DNA from: an uncultured Caldisericota bacterium
GTDB lineage: Bacteria; Caldisericota; Caldisericia; UBA6126
NCBI GenBank assembly: GCA_964422555.1
Contig: CAYRBR010000002.1
Span: forward strand, 4,434-68,433
Length of the DNA: 64,000 nucleotides
Reading direction: 5' to 3'
The stretch's first letter is position 1; each line of letters begins with the position of its first letter. Below, piece after piece: positions 1 through 9,627 of this stretch. Both the position numbers and the translations under genes were made by a program. Under the pieces are notes generated by a model. It was given only the letters and a program-made list of their open reading frames with translations, was not told where the DNA came from and did no database searches.

Positions 1-409
1 TTTTGTTTACTACTTTGTGTTAGTTCCATTTGGAGTTGAATATTTACAGACTATCGCTTTCATCCTTACAATTGCAGTTTTCGTACAATTAGTAGAAATA
101 TACTTAAAAAAGATGATTCCAAATCTTTATAAAGTAATGGGGATATATCTTCCCTTGATTACTACAAACTGTATGATTTTAGGAGTAACAATTCTAAACA
201 TTCAAAATTCTTATAGTTTGATTGAAACAATTGTTTTTTCTTTTGGCTCATCTCTAGGTTTCACACTGGCAATGATATTAATGACCTCAATAAGAAATCG
301 TATGAAGGATTCAAACATTCCTGATTTCTTTAAAGGAGCTCCAGCTGTTTTCATCGCTGCCTCTTTTATTGCTATTGCTTTTATGGGATTGCAAGGATTA
401 GGTGGGTGA
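1..409 (+). CDS. rnfA: Rnf electron-transport complex subunit A (RnfA/NqrE family), C-terminal part; N-terminus lies upstream of the window
   Basis: Open frame from the window edge to the stop at 407-409. Polytopic hydrophobic sequence with a typical RnfA/NqrDE-family C-terminus (…AFMGLQGLGG). Immediately followed by rnfB, as in the rnfCDGEAB order. Confidence 0.75.
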   Translation, partial: FVYYFVLVPFGVEYLQTIAFILTIAVFVQLVEIYLKKMIPNLYKVMGIYLPLITTNCMILGVTILNIQNSYSLIETIVFSFGSSLGFTLAMILMTSIRNRMKDSNIPDFFKGAPAVFIAASFIAIAFMGLQGLGG

Positions 410-410
410 T

Positions 411-1235
411 ATGTCTTTACAAATTATTATATATTCTAGTCTAATACTACTTGGTCTTGGTCTTTTATTCGGCTGGATGCTGGGTGTTTTCTCTAACGTT
501 TTTTATGTAAAAGAAAATCCTCTTATTGAAAAGATTAAAGATGCGCTTCCACAAGCTAATTGCGGAGCCTGTGGCTATTCAGGTTGTGCTTCTTTTGCGG
601 AAGCAGTAGCAAGTGGGAAAGCACCAATTAATGGTTGTGTAGCCGGTGGACAAGAGACAATTGATAGCATCGCTACCATAATGGGCATTTCTGCTTCGAA
701 TAATGCAAAACGCTACGTAGCAGTTGTACTCTGCAAAGGTGGAAAAGATGAATCAATAAAAAATGCCACAGCCATGGGAGCAAGTAGTTGTAGAATGGCG
801 CATGAGCTAAGATTATATGACAGAGTTTGTCGTTTTGGTTGTTTAGGACACGGTGATTGCGAAGATGCATGTCCATTTGGAGCTATTTCAATGGGAAAGA
901 ATGGTTTACCAAAAATTGACACAACCATTTGTACAGGTTGTGGTATCTGTGTTGATACATGCCCTAGAAACATCATTAAATTGTTTCACGATACGAAACG
1001 TGTCCTTGCTCTGTGTAGTAACAATGAAAAGGGTTCATTTGTGCGCAAAGCATGTAAAGTCGGATGTATATCTTGTGGTCTTTGTATAAAAAAATGTCCT
1101 CAAAAGGCAATTGTTTTTAAAGACAATTTACCTGTTATAGATATTGAAAAATGCAATCTTTGTGGTATTTGTGTTACTGTGTGTCCAGTTAATGCATTAT
1201 CTTTGAGAAAAGCACTTACGGAGAAAGATGAGTAA
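411..1235 (+). CDS. rnfB: Rnf complex subunit B: N-terminal membrane anchor plus polyferredoxin domain with several 4Fe-4S Cys motifs
   Basis: ATG at 411 preceded by AGGTGGG; a GTG at 402 is an alternative start. N-terminal TM helix. Cys clusters CGACGYSGC and repeated CxxCxxCxxxCP motifs (CTGCGICVDTCP, CISCGLCIKKCP, CNLCGICVTVCP). Confidence 0.85.
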   Translation: MSLQIIIYSSLILLGLGLLFGWMLGVFSNVFYVKENPLIEKIKDALPQANCGACGYSGCASFAEAVASGKAPINGCVAGGQETIDSIATIMGISASNNAKRYVAVVLCKGGKDESIKNATAMGASSCRMAHELRLYDRVCRFGCLGHGDCEDACPFGAISMGKNGLPKIDTTICTGCGICVDTCPRNIIKLFHDTKRVLALCSNNEKGSFVRKACKVGCISCGLCIKKCPQKAIVFKDNLPVIDIEKCNLCGICVTVCPVNALSLRKALTEKDE

Positions 1236-3564
1236 AAATCATAAACAAACAACTGTTAGTATTGGTCTATTTTTTGTGTTCTTATTTGGTTCCGTTTTTT
1301 CATACCTTCATTTAGCTTACAGTGCAGAACTTAATTACCTTTCTTTACGTAATGAAAGTGGTTACAACTATACTCTGGGACAATGTTCTATACGGCTGAA
1401 AGATCCTCCAAATGGAAGTTATATCTTAAAAAAAGAAGGGGACGAACAAGACACAATACTAAGTTGTATTTTATCCACTCCTAAAACAAACATGATACTT
1501 TTATCTTCTTCATTTAAACCAAATGAAGAAAAAATATATCGAATAAAAGAAACAAAACAAGGTGATTTTAACTCTATTCCTATCAGTACTTCACCCGGGA
1601 CTCTTTATCACTTCGTTAACTATGATAAAGCACATATAATTTCATGTGAACCAAACAACAAGATTGATGTTTTAAATAACGAAAGTAAAGTTCTGGAATC
1701 TTTCACGCTTGAAAAAGGAAAAGATAACGTTTTCCATTCTCCCACTCCAACGAATATTGTTATCAAATCAGAAAAACCAATTTATGTTTTTGAAAGCTCA
1801 CTTTCCTCTGATCCGTTATCACAAAAAGAATCCGGTGACAGCGATACTACAACTCTTTATGGAACACACCTTTTCTTCTACAATCCAGGTCATATTTGGG
1901 TATCGGCATATTATCCTAACACAAAGGTTAAAATACTTGATCAAAACCAGATCCCTGTCCATAATTTTACTATTAATCCTGAAAATGGATTGTTTTTGAA
2001 TGATTTAGAAATTGGATCATACTCTCTTGTCTCGTCCTCTCCCATAACACTCCAGACTGGTTTTCTAGACAATGAAAATTATTCTTATATTTTTGGTGAA
2101 ATTAACAATGTGAATGGTTTTTCTTTTGGAGATCTTCTTTTCTATTCACCCTATAAAGATGTTAAGATAAACCTAGAATATAATGATTTAAAAAAAACTG
2201 TTTCGCTTTCTGAACCTGGCTCTAGTTCAATTGTATCAACAATTGATAGCTTTAGTCCATCGAAACCTGAATATGTATATTTCTCAGCATCCTCTGACTT
2301 ACCCTTTTATGTACTTTCTTTCTCTTCGGGTAATAATTTCGGAGGTGAGTTTTCTCCTGGTTCACATGGATCTTTCTATGATGTAGATTTTACAATGATA
2401 TCATCTAGGGTGGCAAAGGAGTTTTCTAAAGATCAGAAAAATTTATTAGAAATTTATGCAAATGAACCGTTTACATCAATCAACTTAAATACCGATTCTA
2501 CAGAAAATAATCAAACGATATCCTTAAGCAAATTTTCATTTTACGATTATCTATCAGCAGAACCACTTTCAAAAATTAGTGTTTCTTCTGATACTTTAAT
2601 CTCTTGCCTTCAATTGCACAACTATACATCGAAGGGATTGTTTTACTACGTTCCCCCTATTTCTACGACCATTTCTTATAGTTTTCATGAAACACCTTCT
2701 TCTAATGGGGGTTTATTCACAAATAACGACAAAACACCGAATTCTTTATCTTTGTTGATGGATCATTCAAGGTGGATTACATTTTTTCAACAAATACTAA
2801 ATCCCTCTTTACTACCCTTTACCGTTTTTTTTGGTGGTTTTTTACTTTTATTTCTCTTTCTGCTTCTATGGATTTCTTTCAAAAAAATTACCATTGAAAA
2901 AAACAATCCTGTAGAAAAAGAAGGTCAGTCTGCAAACAAAAATAATAGTTTTGTCCCTGACAGTAGTGATTCCGCTGTACTATCTGTTAAAAAAACTAAT
3001 TCTATTACCACTGCTCCTTCTGTTACACAGTCCCAAAAAACGAGCCAATCTACAGATAGTTTCAAAAAGCAAACAAATTCCTTGGAAGATTCTGCTACAG
3101 AAAGAAAGGAACACGCTGAAAAAAAGAAAATTCACATTGCTCCAGAACATACTCCTGTTTGGATGAAAAATAGCAAAGAAACTCCTGTTTCCGAAGAAGA
3201 TCATGATGCATCTGAATCTACTTCTAATGAAAAGAAATCTACAACCATTGAATCTTCTCATCAGGGTAATAACATTCGTAAATCCCTACGTATTCATACC
3301 CCCTCTCTTGACAAAAGTTCTGATTTAACAAACTTACCTACTTTAAATACAGACCAAGATGCTATATTTTCAAGCATTAAAAACCTGAAGAAAAAAAAGA
3401 AGAAAGACAGCATTAAGCCTATAAAAGCAAATGAACCACATGATGTAAACGTTAGTAAAGTCGCTAAGGGTAATGATCTTTCCTCATCCGAAAATAGCAA
3501 ACAGACTGAAAAAACAAGAATAAAAGATGCCTACAGGGATTCATATACATTTGATGAAAAATAA
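1228..3564 (+). CDS. Large hypothetical type-I membrane protein: signal/anchor, ~500-aa S/T/N-rich ectodomain, one TM helix, ~230-aa K/S/T-rich low-complexity cytoplasmic tail
   Basis: 2.3-kb ORF whose ATG overlaps the rnfB stop (GATGAGTAA). N-terminal hydrophobic stretch IGLFFVFLFGSVFSYL. Internal TM FTVFFGGFLLLFLFLLLWISF. Tail contains a KKKKKKK run. No recognisable family by eye. Confidence 0.6.
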   Translation: MSKNHKQTTVSIGLFFVFLFGSVFSYLHLAYSAELNYLSLRNESGYNYTLGQCSIRLKDPPNGSYILKKEGDEQDTILSCILSTPKTNMILLSSSFKPNEEKIYRIKETKQGDFNSIPISTSPGTLYHFVNYDKAHIISCEPNNKIDVLNNESKVLESFTLEKGKDNVFHSPTPTNIVIKSEKPIYVFESSLSSDPLSQKESGDSDTTTLYGTHLFFYNPGHIWVSAYYPNTKVKILDQNQIPVHNFTINPENGLFLNDLEIGSYSLVSSSPITLQTGFLDNENYSYIFGEINNVNGFSFGDLLFYSPYKDVKINLEYNDLKKTVSLSEPGSSSIVSTIDSFSPSKPEYVYFSASSDLPFYVLSFSSGNNFGGEFSPGSHGSFYDVDFTMISSRVAKEFSKDQKNLLEIYANEPFTSINLNTDSTENNQTISLSKFSFYDYLSAEPLSKISVSSDTLISCLQLHNYTSKGLFYYVPPISTTISYSFHETPSSNGGLFTNNDKTPNSLSLLMDHSRWITFFQQILNPSLLPFTVFFGGFLLLFLFLLLWISFKKITIEKNNPVEKEGQSANKNNSFVPDSSDSAVLSVKKTNSITTAPSVTQSQKTSQSTDSFKKQTNSLEDSATERKEHAEKKKIHIAPEHTPVWMKNSKETPVSEEDHDASESTSNEKKSTTIESSHQGNNIRKSLRIHTPSLDKSSDLTNLPTLNTDQDAIFSSIKNLKKKKKKDSIKPIKANEPHDVNVSKVAKGNDLSSSENSKQTEKTRIKDAYRDSYTFDEK

Positions 3565-3609
3565 GTAAAACAAGTTTATTCTTCATTTGATGCCAACTTA
3601 GTAAGCAAG

Positions 3610-4002
3610 GTGTATTCTTGTGATCAAAAAAGTAAAAGCCCTAACTTTAGTAACCCTCTTTATCAATCCCTCATTGTCCTTGATCCTGGATCAGCAAATC
3701 GGCTTTATATTGAAGGTTTCCTAAATAAGTTTAAAAAAGCTTTTATTGCTTCTTCTTCCTCTAAAAAACTAGCTCCCGAGATTAGCTCACATTTAGTACC
3801 TGTAAAACTAAACATGAACGATAAAGCCAAAGCCATTACTATGAAAGATTCCTGCAATACATTTGAAGAAGCTGGCCTTGCGTTTATTGTGTGTAAAAAG
3901 AAACACTGTAAGTACTATATTTCTTCCTATCAACTACCAAAGAAGATAATGGGTATTGAAATTCTTTCAGTTCATGAAATTGTAAAGTCACTTGAAAAAT
4001 GA
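3610..4002 (+). CDS. Small hypothetical protein (130 aa, GTG start; start uncertain)
   Basis: ORF between the large membrane protein gene and apbE. Its end overlaps the apbE start by 11 nt. No recognisable motifs. Confidence 0.3.
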   Translation: MYSCDQKSKSPNFSNPLYQSLIVLDPGSANRLYIEGFLNKFKKAFIASSSSKKLAPEISSHLVPVKLNMNDKAKAITMKDSCNTFEEAGLAFIVCKKKHCKYYISSYQLPKKIMGIEILSVHEIVKSLEK

Positions 4003-4999
4003 TATGAAAAAAAAGGATTCCTTTTTTTCTTCCGTAATTTTTCTTTTAGTTTTGTCCTTTTTTTTTCTATCATGCAGAAATACTCCCTTAAATCAAAAAA
4101 TTAAATGGCACTCTAAAACTCTTTTTTATATGGATACTTTTCTTACAATTCAGATACCTTCGGAGTCTGATTCTGATACCCTTCTTCTGTCAGTTCAAAC
4201 AATACTAGATGACATAGATAAGAAATTAAACGCATATTCCATTGGTTCTGATGTATATAGAATCAATCAAAATGCTGGGTACACACCGATTACCGTAAGT
4301 GACGAAACTATTTTTGTTCTTAAGAAATGTATTGATTTTTCGGACGATAGTAAGGGTTTATTCGACATTACATTCCTTCCAATACAGGATTTGTATGGTT
4401 TCTCTGACAAAGAGTATCGTATACCCTCTGAATTAATCCTTACTGAGACATTGAAGCTTGTTGATTATAAAAATATTATTATTAATGAAGAACATTCAAC
4501 CGTACTCCTTGCAGAAAAGCAGATGAGAATAAATCTCTCTGGCATAATTAAAGGCTATTCGCTTGATAAAATTACAGATTTTCTTCAATCATCATCTGTA
4601 GAGTATTATAAGATTGACTTTGGAGGAAACTTAGCTTTATCCTTACCTGATTCAATCCCTGTAGGGATTGAAAGCCATGAAAATAGTATCCAGAACACTA
4701 TCATGATGAAGCAGGGCTTTATATCTACCTCATCCGGTTCTCATCAGTCATTCATAAAAGGTGAACAGCTTTACACACATATAGTTAATCCAACCACAGG
4801 CTCTGCTAAACCTTGTGTCTTATCTGCTACCGTTAAAACTTGGAGTGGCATGGAATCTGATTTTCTTTCAACCTACTTTTTTTTAGCAGGTTCCAACCCT
4901 AGTCCCTTAATCATAAAAAAATACCTTCCTCAAGCCTCTGTTTATATCTATGATCTTGATGGCCATTTCAGTACTTATGCAGAAAATTACAATCCGTAA
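3992..4999 (+). CDS. apbE: FAD:protein FMN transferase (ApbE family) lipoprotein
   Basis: Signal peptide with a Cys (FFFLSC). ApbE-like motifs: YSIGSDVYRINQNAG (S-x-S-x-x-S-R-l-N), GIIKGYSLDKI, IDFGGNLAL, ISTSSGSHQSF, HIVNPTTGSAKP. Canonical position after rnf genes. Confidence 0.75.
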   Translation: MKNDMKKKDSFFSSVIFLLVLSFFFLSCRNTPLNQKIKWHSKTLFYMDTFLTIQIPSESDSDTLLLSVQTILDDIDKKLNAYSIGSDVYRINQNAGYTPITVSDETIFVLKKCIDFSDDSKGLFDITFLPIQDLYGFSDKEYRIPSELILTETLKLVDYKNIIINEEHSTVLLAEKQMRINLSGIIKGYSLDKITDFLQSSSVEYYKIDFGGNLALSLPDSIPVGIESHENSIQNTIMMKQGFISTSSGSHQSFIKGEQLYTHIVNPTTGSAKPCVLSATVKTWSGMESDFLSTYFFLAGSNPSPLIIKKYLPQASVYIYDLDGHFSTYAENYNP

Positions 5000-5486
5000 C
5001 TTAACAACTTTTTCATTGTTACTAACCATCGGTATCATTCTTCACTTTGTGGAGTTTTATATTTCCATTCCGATTGGTGGGTTTGTTTTGAAGCCAGGTG
5101 TTTCGAACATTGTTATCCTTATTTGTCTATATTATTTTGGAATCAAAGAAACAATTTTACTTGCAGTTTCAAGAATTCTCTTATCTGCTCTTTTCGAACC
5201 ATCCATTAATAGTATGACTATCGCGATAAGTTTTGGGGGAGTTGTTTTAAGTCTTACCGCAATTATTCTGCTTTTTTGTTATAGTCGTTTTAATATCAAA
5301 ATTATTAGTGTTATTGGAGCTATTCTGCACAATATCGGTCAACTTATTGTCGTACTATTTTTTATTCCTTGCAATTATTTATTATACTATTTACCATTAA
5401 TAGTTGTTTCTGGTTTTTTTGGAGGCTATATTACTGGCTGGATAGCAGAAGTGTCTTTGCAAAAGATAGATTCTATTAATACTTAG
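4950..5486 (+). CDS. Small polytopic membrane protein (5-6 TM; Gx-transporter/ECF-S-like fold suspected)
   Basis: Hydrophobic 178-aa ORF overlapping the apbE 3' end. Alternative ATGs at 4959 and 4977 reduce the overlap. No enzymatic motifs. Confidence 0.5.
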   Translation: MILMAISVLMQKITIRNLTTFSLLLTIGIILHFVEFYISIPIGGFVLKPGVSNIVILICLYYFGIKETILLAVSRILLSALFEPSINSMTIAISFGGVVLSLTAIILLFCYSRFNIKIISVIGAILHNIGQLIVVLFFIPCNYLLYYLPLIVVSGFFGGYITGWIAEVSLQKIDSINT

Positions 5487-5507
5487 CAAGATGAAATGGA
5501 GTAGAGT

Positions 5508-6545
5508 ATGAATTTTGGTCATTTTGGAAAAGATATTGCAATCGATCTTGGAACCGCTAACACACTTGTTTATATTGCTGGACAAGGGATAATGCTCAGA
5601 GAGCCTTCTATAGTTGCAGTACGTCGTGAAAATGGGGAAATTATTGCAATTGGTAACGAAGCAAAACGTATGGCGGGTCGTGTTCCAGAGGCAATACAGA
5701 TAATTCGTCCCTTGAAAGATGGGGTAATTGCAAATTTTGAGGTAACTCAAAAACTTATAGAATACTTAATACAAAAAGTAGGAGCAAGAAAAGGTTTTTT
5801 TGGGTTTATTAAGCCTCGATTAGTTATCGGAATCCCCTCTGGTATCACTGAAGTTGAAATGCGAGCAGTAGTTGAAGCAGGATATCAAGCAGGAGCTCGT
5901 TATGTTGGTTTAGTTCAAGAACCTATGGCAGCTTCTTTTGGAGCAAACCTTCCTGTAAGTGAACCTACAGGCAATATGATTGTTGACATTGGTGGAGGCA
6001 CATGCGAGGTAGCCGTTGTTTCATTAAATGGAATCGTCGCTAAAAATTCAATACGAATTGCCGGTGATGAAATGAATGAGGCAATTCTTCAATACCTTAA
6101 AAGACAGTACAACCTGCTTGTTGGAATTTATACTGCTGAAGAAATAAAAATTGAAATTGGAACTGCATATCCTAGTGATCAGGTAACAACAGCCGAAATT
6201 AAAGGAAGAGATCTCATTACGGGTCTTCCTCGAACTGTAACAATAACCTCAGAAGAGACGCGTATCGCATTAAATGACGTCTTGATTAGTATTATGGAAG
6301 CAGTTAAAGCAACTCTTGAAAATACACCTCCAGACCTTGGAGCTGATATTATTGACAGAGGTATATTTCTTGCAGGTGGAGGTTCCTTAATTCGTGGAAT
6401 GGCCAGATATATTTCAGAAGGTACTGGCATTCTAGTATCAAATGCTGAAAACCCTGTTCTTTGTGTAGCGCTAGGTGCAGGTAAAATAGTTGAAAACCTT
6501 GAAAAACTTATGCCACTTTTATTGAAGGTGAAGTATTATAAATAA
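5508..6545 (+). CDS. mreB: Rod-shape determining actin homolog MreB
   Basis: N-terminal DIAIDLGTANTLVY phosphate-1 motif, DIGGGTCEVAV, and a GGGSLIRG C-terminal motif. About 345 aa. Confidence 0.9.
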   Translation: MNFGHFGKDIAIDLGTANTLVYIAGQGIMLREPSIVAVRRENGEIIAIGNEAKRMAGRVPEAIQIIRPLKDGVIANFEVTQKLIEYLIQKVGARKGFFGFIKPRLVIGIPSGITEVEMRAVVEAGYQAGARYVGLVQEPMAASFGANLPVSEPTGNMIVDIGGGTCEVAVVSLNGIVAKNSIRIAGDEMNEAILQYLKRQYNLLVGIYTAEEIKIEIGTAYPSDQVTTAEIKGRDLITGLPRTVTITSEETRIALNDVLISIMEAVKATLENTPPDLGADIIDRGIFLAGGGSLIRGMARYISEGTGILVSNAENPVLCVALGAGKIVENLEKLMPLLLKVKYYK

Positions 6546-7367
6546 ATGTCTATAAAAAAAAGAGGCTTTTTGTGGCTTGTTATCTCCCTAGTCTTCTTTT
6601 TAGCTATTTCTTTTTATTGGAGCTTTAGTGATTCATCTTTTTCAATTGCATCCCAAGGATTTGTTAGAAATACTATAAGCCCCGTAGGAAAAATGTTCTC
6701 GTCATTTGGTTCTTCGATACATAATTTGCTTGCAAATCTACAATCCTACCCAAGTTTAGTCGAAAACAACCAAAGACTTTTGATTGAGAATGAATCATTA
6801 AAGAATGAAATTAAGATACGTGACCAAATTCAGTTTGACAATGAAAGATTTTCAATGTTACTAGGAATAGTGCAGGATAATCCTAACACATATATCCCTG
6901 CATCTATCATTTATCGAACCCCAGACTCTACTATGAATTTTATAATCAACAGGGGTTCAAATTCGAATGTTAAAGATGGATTGGCTGTGGTTTCCCCAGT
7001 TTACAAGAACAGTTCACTATCACATTTCCAACTCCTTGGTAAAACGATAGATGTTTCAAAACTCGACTCTCCAGTTTTATCACTCTATGATGAAAACTCA
7101 AATGTCAGTATCCGTAATCTCCGCAATAATGTAAATGGAACTGTATCCTTCAATTCAAAAAACAACACTCTGTATGTAAAATTCTACAAAAAAGAAGATT
7201 ATCAGCTCAATGATATTTTAGTTGTTAGTTCTTTTTCTTCATTGCCAAATGATTTACTGGTGGGATCTATTGTAGAAATTCAGCCGACTGAATCAATACA
7301 TTACCTAGCGATCGTTAAACCTGTCAAAGATTTTTCAAAGATTACAGAGGTTCTTGTTATTCAATGA
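6546..7367 (+). CDS. mreC: Rod-shape determining protein MreC
   Basis: Starts 1 nt after the mreB stop. N-terminal TM, coiled-coil segment, then beta-rich C-terminal domain. Position between mreB and mreD. Confidence 0.7.
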   Translation: MSIKKRGFLWLVISLVFFLAISFYWSFSDSSFSIASQGFVRNTISPVGKMFSSFGSSIHNLLANLQSYPSLVENNQRLLIENESLKNEIKIRDQIQFDNERFSMLLGIVQDNPNTYIPASIIYRTPDSTMNFIINRGSNSNVKDGLAVVSPVYKNSSLSHFQLLGKTIDVSKLDSPVLSLYDENSNVSIRNLRNNVNGTVSFNSKNNTLYVKFYKKEDYQLNDILVVSSFSSLPNDLLVGSIVEIQPTESIHYLAIVKPVKDFSKITEVLVIQ

Positions 7368-7840
7368 TCTACATAATTATTGTATTCCTTCAAGTTTTCA
7401 TTGTATGCCTTGATTTGTTTTTTTTTCCAAGTTTACTTCATTCCAGAACACCAATCGGCTTATCTTTGCTTTTTGCTATTTCCATGGTTTACCTGTTTCA
7501 AACCAAAGGTTTGTTTAGTATTCTCCCCGGATTACTCCTAAAACTCAGTTTTCTACCTACAACAATCGTAGTACCCACACTTATAGCATATTCACTATTT
7601 ATATTGCTATCTTTTCTTTTCAAAAACAATCAACAATCCCATGCAAACTCTTTGTTTATTCTTTTCTCTTATGTGGTGATTCTTAGTATTTTTATTTTTC
7701 AGTTTTTCTTTTCTTGCCCTAACCCTTTTTACACATTTATTCTAAATCTACTTTTATATACTTTTGTTATTCTTCCTTTGTTCTATATTTTTTCCAAAAA
7801 ATTGTTTTCGATCGCTCTCAGAAAAAAGCCTATTCTATGA
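7364..7840 (+). CDS. mreD: Rod-shape determining protein MreD (polytopic membrane)
   Basis: ATGA overlap with mreC. Very hydrophobic 158-aa protein. Operon position between mreC and mrdA. Confidence 0.6.
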   Translation: MIYIIIVFLQVFIVCLDLFFFPSLLHSRTPIGLSLLFAISMVYLFQTKGLFSILPGLLLKLSFLPTTIVVPTLIAYSLFILLSFLFKNNQQSHANSLFILFSYVVILSIFIFQFFFSCPNPFYTFILNLLLYTFVILPLFYIFSKKLFSIALRKKPIL

Positions 7841-9627
7841 ATCATATCCCTTTAGTAAAAAAGAATATCGACATTCATCCTGTTAAGATCGTTCTTTTTA
7901 TTTTAATCATTTCAGCATGTTCCGTATTCCTTATAACAAAACTCCTTATCTTGCAAGGATTCGAACAAGAGAAATATGCTCATTTAGCAACTAATAATTA
8001 CAACCGGTACAGTCTTCAAGAAGCTCCAAGGGGTACCATATATGATCGTAATGGTATTGTTTTAGCAGAGGATGTTCCCACTTTTCATCTTTATGCAGTT
8101 CCCAGCGAAATACCACAACCAAAATACTCCTCAAAATTAATACATGACTTAATAGGTATAAACCAAGAAACAGTCATTCAAAAAATTACTGAAAATTATT
8201 CTTTTGCCGAGATCTTGCTAAAAGAAAACCTATCCTACGAAGAAAGAATTCGTCTGGAAGAAAACGAATACAAGTTAAAGGGTTTCTTCATAAAAGAAGG
8301 GTATAAGAGGTTTTACCCTAAAAATTCTTGTCTGTGCCATGTTATAGGATACACGGGAGTTATTTCACAAGATGATCTGGCTAGAAAGAAATATTCCGCA
8401 TATCAGCCAAATGAGAGGATAGGCATTTCAGGTATAGAAAGATACTACGAAATGTTACTTCATGGCACACCTGGACTTAAGAAGCAAACAATTGACGTAT
8501 ACGGTCATGTCGTGGATGAAATAACTGAAAAAGAAGTTATAAAAGGGAAAGATATCTACCTAACCATTGATTCCAGACTTCAGGAAAAAGCAGAAGAAAT
8601 CATACAGGATCATCGGGGATGCCTTGTTCTTATGAATTGCAATAATGGTGAAATCATAACTTGCGCATCAAATCCTACTTTTGATCCAAATTACTTCTCT
8701 GGACCCAGACCTATTGAAACTTGGAACTTATGGGTGGAGAATAGAGCTTTTTTCAACATTGCAACCATGGGACAATATCCACCTGGTTCAACATTCAAGC
8801 CCATTGTCGCTTTATTTGGATTAGTAAGTGGTTATCTTACAGATTCCGAATATATTACGTGTACTGGTTCTTTGAAAATCCCCGGACAAGAAGATAAATA
8901 CAGATGCTGGGTATATCCTTCTTCACATGGACCCTTACAATTAAAGAGAGCAATACAGGTATCTTGTGATGTTTATTTTTACCTTGCTGCCGAAAGATAT
9001 CCTATTGAATCTTTCATATCATTTCTAAAAGATTTTGGAGGCATATCAAAAGCTACGGGAATTGATTTACCGTCTGAAGAAAGTGGCTTTCTTGGTAGTC
9101 CGGAATGGAAAGAAAAATTTAAGGGACAATCCTGGTTTAAGGGTGATTCTATGAATTTAGGAATTGGGCAAGGTTTCTTATCTGTTACACCTATTCAGAT
9201 GACAAAATTATATGCTAAAATTGGGAACAAAGGGAAACATATTCAACCTCACCTCCTACTTGTTGAAAACTCTGAATCAAATTCAACTGATTCGTTAGAT
9301 AATTATGCAGATCACAATATTTCACATTACGACTACGATACTATTTTAGAAGGTATGCACATGACTACTCTGTATCCTGGTACTGCATCCGGACTATATA
9401 CTAACTCAGTAGAGATCGCTGCAAAAACCGGCACTGCATTGGTTCAGGGACAAGGTAGAGATATCCAGCATCTTTGGCTTGGTTCAATATTCCCCTATGA
9501 AGATCCTCAGTATAGTTGTTTCCTTCTGTTCGAAAATTCGCAATATCAATTAGCAAGTAATTTAACTCCATTTTTAAAAAATTTTATTGTATACTTTTAT
9601 CAGCTTGATGCATCGGAGGTGAATTAA
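7837..9627 (+). CDS. mrdA: Penicillin-binding protein 2 (elongasome transpeptidase)
   Basis: ATGA overlap with mreD. N-terminal TM. Motifs S-x-x-K (GSTFKP), S-x-D (SCDVYFY, as in PBP2) and KTG (KTGTA). Confidence 0.85.
   Translation: MNHIPLVKKNIDIHPVKIVLFILIISACSVFLITKLLILQGFEQEKYAHLATNNYNRYSLQEAPRGTIYDRNGIVLAEDVPTFHLYAVPSEIPQPKYSSKLIHDLIGINQETVIQKITENYSFAEILLKENLSYEERIRLEENEYKLKGFFIKEGYKRFYPKNSCLCHVIGYTGVISQDDLARKKYSAYQPNERIGISGIERYYEMLLHGTPGLKKQTIDVYGHVVDEITEKEVIKGKDIYLTIDSRLQEKAEEIIQDHRGCLVLMNCNNGEIITCASNPTFDPNYFSGPRPIETWNLWVENRAFFNIATMGQYPPGSTFKPIVALFGLVSGYLTDSEYITCTGSLKIPGQEDKYRCWVYPSSHGPLQLKRAIQVSCDVYFYLAAERYPIESFISFLKDFGGISKATGIDLPSEESGFLGSPEWKEKFKGQSWFKGDSMNLGIGQGFLSVTPIQMTKLYAKIGNKGKHIQPHLLLVENSESNSTDSLDNYADHNISHYDYDTILEGMHMTTLYPGTASGLYTNSVEIAAKTGTALVQGQGRDIQHLWLGSIFPYEDPQYSCFLLFENSQYQLASNLTPFLKNFIVYFYQLDASEVN

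Follow-up and report, generated by a model that had tools for sequence, protein, structure and literature searches.

Why does a gene for a large single-pass membrane protein lie between rnfB and apbE in an uncultured Caldisericota bacterium? This arrangement was flagged in the initial annotation of a 64,000-nucleotide stretch of its DNA (GenBank assembly GCA_964422555.1, contig CAYRBR010000002.1, positions 4,434 to 68,433; the whole stretch is called the window here). The initial annotation took the gene to be a 778-aa open reading frame (ORF) and offered two explanations for it: a new accessory or anchoring partner of the Rnf complex, or an unrelated surface protein that had hijacked the rnf transcript. 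The locus looked suggestive because the gene, which we call X, sits between Rnf and its flavinylation module. Our preferred answer, which we hold to be probable, is that X is a Caldisericota-specific bitopic envelope protein with a PIN-like end, that it is paired with DZR, a small membrane protein that carries a double zinc ribbon on its cytoplasmic side, and that it is not a dedicated Rnf subunit.

The extent of gene X

The flagged ORF is present. Its ATG at 1228 lies within GATGAGTAA and overlaps the rnfB stop (1233-1235) by 8 nt, with a GGAG 4 nt 5' of the ATG. The identities given for rnfB and apbE were also right by Pfam and NCBIfam matches. However, the ORF covers only the front part of the gene between them. 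A single TAA separates it from a 130-aa ORF in the same frame, and past the TAA this frame runs on to a TGA at 4000-4002. The 130-aa product is 58% identical to the C-terminal ~115 residues of P0002, a homolog of 903 aa (BLASTP, E = 1e-44), and 57% identical to the C terminus of P0005 (BLASTP, E = 7e-40). In a family alignment, X of the window is colinear with its full-length homologs across the TAA, and all full-length members carry the C-terminal domain that had been missed. The region 3565-4003 is not intergenic, since it carries the 3' part of X. Read through, X ends 1 nt before the likely apbE ATG at 4004, which matches the junction in locus L001. Judged from these comparisons, 1228-4002 is a real gene unit split by one stop codon. 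This corrects the gene model: the public annotation has two "hypothetical proteins" of 778 aa (P0001) and 130 aa (P0038), and the two are one gene.

The codons beyond the TAA are conserved like the ectodomain. All 19 of the 19 family-invariant residues are kept in the 116 codons 3' of it, and identity to the closest homolog, P0002, is 57% over these codons against 55% over the ectodomain. Therefore, the TAA is either a very recent mutation or a sequence error. It is the one lesion in the gene, which has no frameshifts. Looking for exact matches to the products of 778 aa and 130 aa turned up no second copy of the window's X in which the TAA codon could be compared. A metagenome scan with the 59-nt region around the TAA, the codon itself wildcarded, gave no matches, so no sense-codon variant was seen. 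As sequenced, the gene would yield an ectodomain, transmembrane (TM) helix and linker without the PIN-like domain. In a metagenome-assembled genome (MAG) of related gene order, AnMBR.bin291, X and apbE are both split into several short ORFs (L003:9926-13686), probably by assembly frameshift errors; this case shows that MAGs can hold broken copies of X.

The DZR-X pair and the rnf operon

Homologs of X are almost exclusive to Caldisericota MAGs. Tier 1 is a tight family of 23-26 clusters, recovered by word-indexed protein searches and ectodomain-profile searches, and all of its organism-labelled members are Caldisericia MAGs. Tier 2 (P0042 and P0044-P0048; E = 1e-18 to 1e-10) came from an exhaustive hidden Markov model search with a profile of the C-terminal domain. 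Tier-2 proteins have the architecture of X, and the named ones are labelled Caldisericia or Caldisericales. Over 436 columns, hhalign aligns the P0042 ectodomain with that of X at 98.2% probability, which shows that the two are homologous. The third set is remote (E = 1e-8 to 1e-5): archaeal single-pass proteins whose ectodomains differ and whose C-terminal domain is of a similar kind. A search of the literature on the X protein, Caldisericota Rnf and DUF2341 topics included, found nothing relevant.

We found that the gene order in tier 1 is valS-folC-DZR-rnfCDGEAB-X (L004, L005 and L006). ORF sizes in L001-L003 are colinear with this order, and DZR is confirmed in L001 and L002. X follows rnfB by an 8-14-nt overlap or a 1-nt gap in six of six tier-1 loci (L001-L006) and in the window. 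Thus, the survey of related rnf loci that the initial annotation had proposed does find the ORF syntenic after rnfB. Because the junctions after rnfB overlap or are 1 nt wide, X is likely to be co-transcribed with rnf in the window's lineage. A promoter and terminator scan of 1-6000 was uninformative, with counts not above those in shuffles and no site at gene junctions. Downstream of X, most tier-1 loci have apbE, a PF07456 gene, mreBCD, pbp2 and minCDE. PF07456 is the eetB family; in Listeria, its member is an ECF-S-like FAD-binding subunit required to export FAD for flavinylation by ApbE (PMC9973259). By these family matches, the apbE-eetB genes downstream of X are a flavinylation module, and X is placed between it and Rnf.

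The gene order in tier 2 is (valS-folC-)DZR-X-AMMECR1 (L008-L012 and L016-L018). DZR and X are 0-1 nt apart in all five tier-2 lineages examined, and there are no rnf or apbE genes within 7-9 kb of X in these five. The DZRs of both tiers are homologous, with 2-3 TM segments, a YYEYELSK segment and four CxxC pairs; DZR overlaps rnfC in tier 1 and abuts X in tier 2. That DZR and X are adjacent without rnf in tier 2 indicates, at the level of gene order, that the conserved unit is the DZR-X pair and that the rnf operon lies inside this pair in tier 1. DZR would then be an evolutionarily stable partner of X. Thus, the idea of an unrelated surface protein on the rnf transcript came near to the evidence, with the difference that rnf lies inside DZR-X instead of X being inserted into an rnf-apbE cluster. 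That X stands between rnfB and apbE reflects the gene order of one lineage and does not speak for a role in Rnf. The best 120 RnfD matches include no protein from a tier-2 contig; in this list, the sequences that come next after those of tier 1 are from Omnitrophota, Spirochaetes and Bacillota. This is compatible with an acquisition of rnf, although it is not decisive.

The invariant place of X right after rnfB would also fit a lineage-specific Rnf accessory, in which X, perhaps with DZR, serves in assembly, anchoring or regulation, with the PIN-like domain docked at RnfB/RnfC on the cytoplasmic side and the ectodomain near RnfG. X stays with rnf in L005, where NfnAB-like genes replace apbE-eetB-mreB downstream. 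DZR and X bracket the rnf operon, and X adjoins the flavinylation module, overlapping rnfB on one side and lying 1 nt before apbE on the other. However, we consider this explanation unlikely. X and rnf co-occur in tier 1 but not in the five tier-2 lineages, which have full-length X next to DZR. X is unlike RnfA-G and ApbE substrates: it is homologous to none of the Rnf/Nqr subunits, matches no Rnf or Fe-S family, and has neither Cys clusters nor a cofactor motif. Genes of one clade can be expected to keep an inherited order even when their functions are not linked, and in the window X tolerates a stop codon by which the conserved cytoplasmic domain is lost. The proposal of an accessory or anchoring partner is weakened accordingly, both by the homologs that follow DZR without rnf and by the lack of a redox or flavinylation motif.

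Several observations on the wider loci can be added. In the window (1-9627) and in L004 and L007, rnf, X and apbE-eetB are lodged within a valS-folC ... mreBCD-pbp2-minCDE string. This string resembles the valS-folC ... mreBCD-minCD gene order of Bacillus subtilis. The tier-2 DZR has an extra N-terminal signal peptide and an acidic extension. The contig of L002 (DAIMET010000003.1) is labelled "Calditrichota bacterium" and has the Caldisericia gene order; its X is 43% identical to that of the window, and its other genes, one of RnfD size among them, are colinear with Caldisericia loci, so this bin is probably mislabelled. The archaeal relatives (L013:354-2018, L014:6001-8823 and L015:151-2973) have CarboxypepD_reg and CGGxCPxC-repeat ectodomains and lie directly upstream of rps6e-eIF2gamma-PIN_9-rpoE-spt4 in three of three contigs. 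The whole 64-kb window has no tRNA genes and no Rfam families at gathering score.

Domains of the X protein

The N-terminal signal or anchor and the single TM helix that had been proposed are both borne out by hydropathy (Table 1). The ectodomain between them is rich in Ser, Asn and Thr as claimed (S 15.2%, N 8.5%, T 6.7%), but its N-x-S/T triplets, said to be many, are not enriched (8 observed, with 8.6 +/- 2.5 expected from composition-preserving shuffles). With sequons at chance level, we rejected N-glycosylation as a reading. The ectodomain has the invariant motifs GDSDTT, LDxENxS and SSGxNFGG, and a model built from alignment A2 is all beta (pLDDT 84.6). IgGFc_binding (PF17517), which covers aa 123-251 and thus part of the ectodomain (30.9 bits; gathering threshold, 25.6), is the sole Pfam match in X, and there are no NCBIfam matches. 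The same family is precomputed for many X homologs; elsewhere it occurs in surface or adhesin-type proteins. DUF2341 (PF10102) is found in three tier-2 homologs, once above threshold (26.3 bits) and twice just below it (22.1 against 23.4), and was not detected in the window protein. PF17517 and PF10102 are both beta-rich extracellular domains of unknown molecular function.

The tail that follows the TM helix is rich in Lys, Ser and Thr (K 15.4%, S 15.4%, T 9.3%), as the initial annotation had it. However, it is not only disordered, because the conserved domain follows the TAA, and the reported run of seven lysines is K6 (aa 721-726). The linker holds a conserved short motif (window 3274-3372, aa 683-715) with the family pattern RKxLRIxxPxL...LPxL..EE.IF; its tier-2 counterpart is (R/K)TPKLxxPxIxxF. 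This motif could be a docking site.

The best-conserved part of X across both groups is the C-terminal domain, whose relatives reach archaea. Therefore, we argue for a cytoplasmic function. Its invariants are D11, PG, ANRL, E21, D57, E73, Y89, S92, Y93 and LP. An AlphaFold model with 18 C-terminal domains as input (alignment A1) has a mean pLDDT of 95.4. The model is a three-layer alpha/beta/alpha fold with a parallel sheet, as in the PIN superfamily, and Foldseek matches it to PcrIIC1, AF1683, VapC20 and PAE2754 (TM 0.5-0.65). Sequence searches gave no such signal: none of the 18 domains matched a Pfam PIN family even at E < 10, a PDB sequence search gave only noise, and hhalign probabilities were below 1% against VapC (a sequence entered by hand) or the L013 PIN_9 protein. 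On the predicted structure, the domain is a divergent PIN-like fold.

Does this domain have the active site of a PIN nuclease? PIN domains have three near-invariant acids, after S1, at the N terminus of H4 and after S4, plus a fourth (PMC5499597). By secondary-structure register, D11 (after S1) and E72/E73 (the helix before S4) appear to be retained in the X domain, and both are invariant. After S4 stands an invariant S92-Y93, and after S2 a Ser and a Lys (S36/K39). D57 and E21 are additional invariant acids. Since only two near-universal PIN acids appear to be kept, the modelled domain is more likely to be a non-canonical or inactive PIN, a binding module, than a canonical nuclease. PADLOC gave no defence matches for X, its C-terminal domain, its homologs or DZR.

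The domain also differs from PIN systems that are known. VapC toxins and minimal PIN domains (SSO1118, PDB 2mdt; PAE0151, 2fe1) have no sequence-profile similarity to it, and by register mapping X would have Ser-Tyr in place of their acid after strand 4 and Ser/Lys after strand 2. Unlike VapC, X is no free toxin with an antitoxin; its PIN-like part ends a membrane protein of ~750-1030 aa. Membrane-attached PIN proteins are known in the COG4956 PIN-TRAM group (PMC5499597). Proteins of this group (YacL type; TTHA0540, PDB 3ix7) cross the membrane with four N-terminal TM helices, carry a TRAM domain and lack an ectodomain. In X, one TM helix joins a large ectodomain to a long disordered tether, there is no TRAM domain, and the PIN-like domain is C-terminal, invisible to profiles and, by register, altered in its acidic set. 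The inactive PIN domains of Utp23 type are eukaryotic, nucleolar and soluble, and are unrelated to X in sequence.

Could X of the window instead be a decaying pseudogene, from a family of generic adhesin or surface-layer proteins without cytoplasmic function? The in-frame TAA would fit this, as would an ectodomain whose likeness is limited to generic beta-sandwich, CBM or MG-like modules and the occurrence of PF17517 in surface or adhesin-type proteins. We think it quite improbable, since the lesion is single, there is no sign of decay after the TAA, the most conserved domain is the cytoplasmic one, and Pfam finds no SLH domain and no known S-layer or adhesin family in X. That X is an extracytoplasmic ApbE substrate, a flavinylated electron-transfer protein, is nearly refuted: X adjoins apbE-eetB in most tier-1 loci and its large domain is predicted to be extracytoplasmic, but, as the initial annotation had already seen for X, there is no [ST]GA[ST] motif in it or in any of the 23 family members from the first search that were checked, a looser D..[ST][GAS]A[ST] occurs only once, non-conserved, in the P0003 linker, X has no FMN_bind or other flavinylation-associated Pfam domain, and apbE is not beside X in L005 or in any tier-2 locus.

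Table 1. Coordinates of gene X, its parts and its neighbours (positions in the window unless a locus is given)
Feature	Position	Strand	Basis
Complete ancestral gene X, 924 codons and a stop, with one in-frame TAA at codon 779	1228-4002	+	Same-frame translation, family alignment
ORF flagged earlier, 778 aa, public protein P0001	1228-3564	+	ORF list and public match
N-terminal signal peptide or membrane anchor, aa 8-30, cleavage uncertain	1249-1317	+	Kyte-Doolittle windows >1.6; positive N terminus MSKNHK
Ectodomain, aa 33-527, all-beta, several beta-sandwich/jelly-roll modules	1324-2808	+	
Single TM helix, aa 528-550, then KK (positive-inside rule)	2809-2877	+	Hydropathy up to 2.6
K/S/T/E-rich low-complexity cytoplasmic linker, length variable among homologs, holds the K6 run	2878-3651	+	Composition; gappy alignment columns
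Conserved short linear motif LRIHTPSL in the linker	3286-3309	+	Regex survey of family, alignment
In-frame TAA cutting gene X (nonsense mutation or sequence error)	3562-3564	+	Same-frame translation
130-aa ORF, identical to public protein P0038, 3' part of gene X	3610-4002	+	BLASTP to P0002/P0005 C termini
Conserved C-terminal cytoplasmic domain, 116 aa, predicted PIN-like fold	3652-3999	+	
rnfA, Rnf-Nqr family; window starts inside the gene	17-409		Pfam/NCBIfam matches
rnfB, stop overlaps X start	402-1235	+	Pfam FeS/Fer4 and NCBIfam rnfB matches
apbE, likely ATG 4004, then Cys-containing hydrophobic N terminus (..FFFLSC, possible lipobox)	4004-4999	+	Pfam ApbE, 3e-53
PF07456 gene, eetB-type family	4950-5486	+	Pfam, 3e-28
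DZR after valS-folC	L001:4603-5124; L004:2615-3118; L008:8364-8999; L010:8337-8999		

The favoured reading and its meaning

The reading that we favour is an envelope protein paired with DZR. X would consist of a signal or anchor, a ~495-aa beta-sandwich ectodomain (IgGFc_binding-like, and DUF2341-like in relatives), one TM helix, a disordered linker and the 116-aa PIN-like domain, with the ectodomain predicted to lie outside and the PIN-like domain inside. In the window's lineage, X would be translated off the rnf transcript through coupling to rnfB. The ectodomain may bind a ligand, either external or in the envelope. At the inner membrane face, the PIN-like domain on its tether may act as an RNA- or protein-binding module, possibly with DZR.

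Several points weigh against this reading. The PIN assignment comes from a predicted structure and finds no support in sequence profiles, and the acids were mapped by secondary-structure register rather than by 3D superposition. That DZR and X act together is proposed from gene pairing, and DZR lies next to none of the archaeal relatives of the C-terminal domain. The absence of rnf in tier 2 covers the 7-9-kb flanks and the best 120 RnfD matches. The gene order fits either an insertion of rnf in tier 1 or a deletion of rnf in tier 2. Finally, X is always at rnfB in the window's group, even where the downstream genes have changed, and a lineage-specific tie to Rnf is possible.

A bolder form of the DZR-X pairing, which we regard as a long shot, is that the two make up a transmembrane signalling pair of a new kind. 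The ligand-sensing ectodomain would control the PIN-like domain, a non-canonical ribonuclease or RNA-binding module held at the membrane by the long flexible linker, with DZR as its partner or inhibitor. Such a pair would be a prokaryotic analogue of Ire1-like logic, sensing outside and cutting RNA inside. In the window's lineage, tying the pair to the rnf transcript would let envelope state be regulated together with energy conservation. If this were true, the remote relatives next to archaeal rps6e-eIF2gamma would point to a translation-linked role.

For the annotation of Rnf loci, adjacency to rnf and apbE is no evidence of Rnf function here, and X should not be labelled an Rnf subunit. What the favoured reading adds is a previously unrecognised PIN-like family, predicted from structure and missed by current profiles. 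In Caldisericota and some archaea, its domain would always end single-pass proteins on the cytoplasmic side, with a large ectodomain on the other. If this domain binds or cuts RNA, X would provide an unusual direct link from the cell surface to RNA metabolism in a poorly studied phylum.

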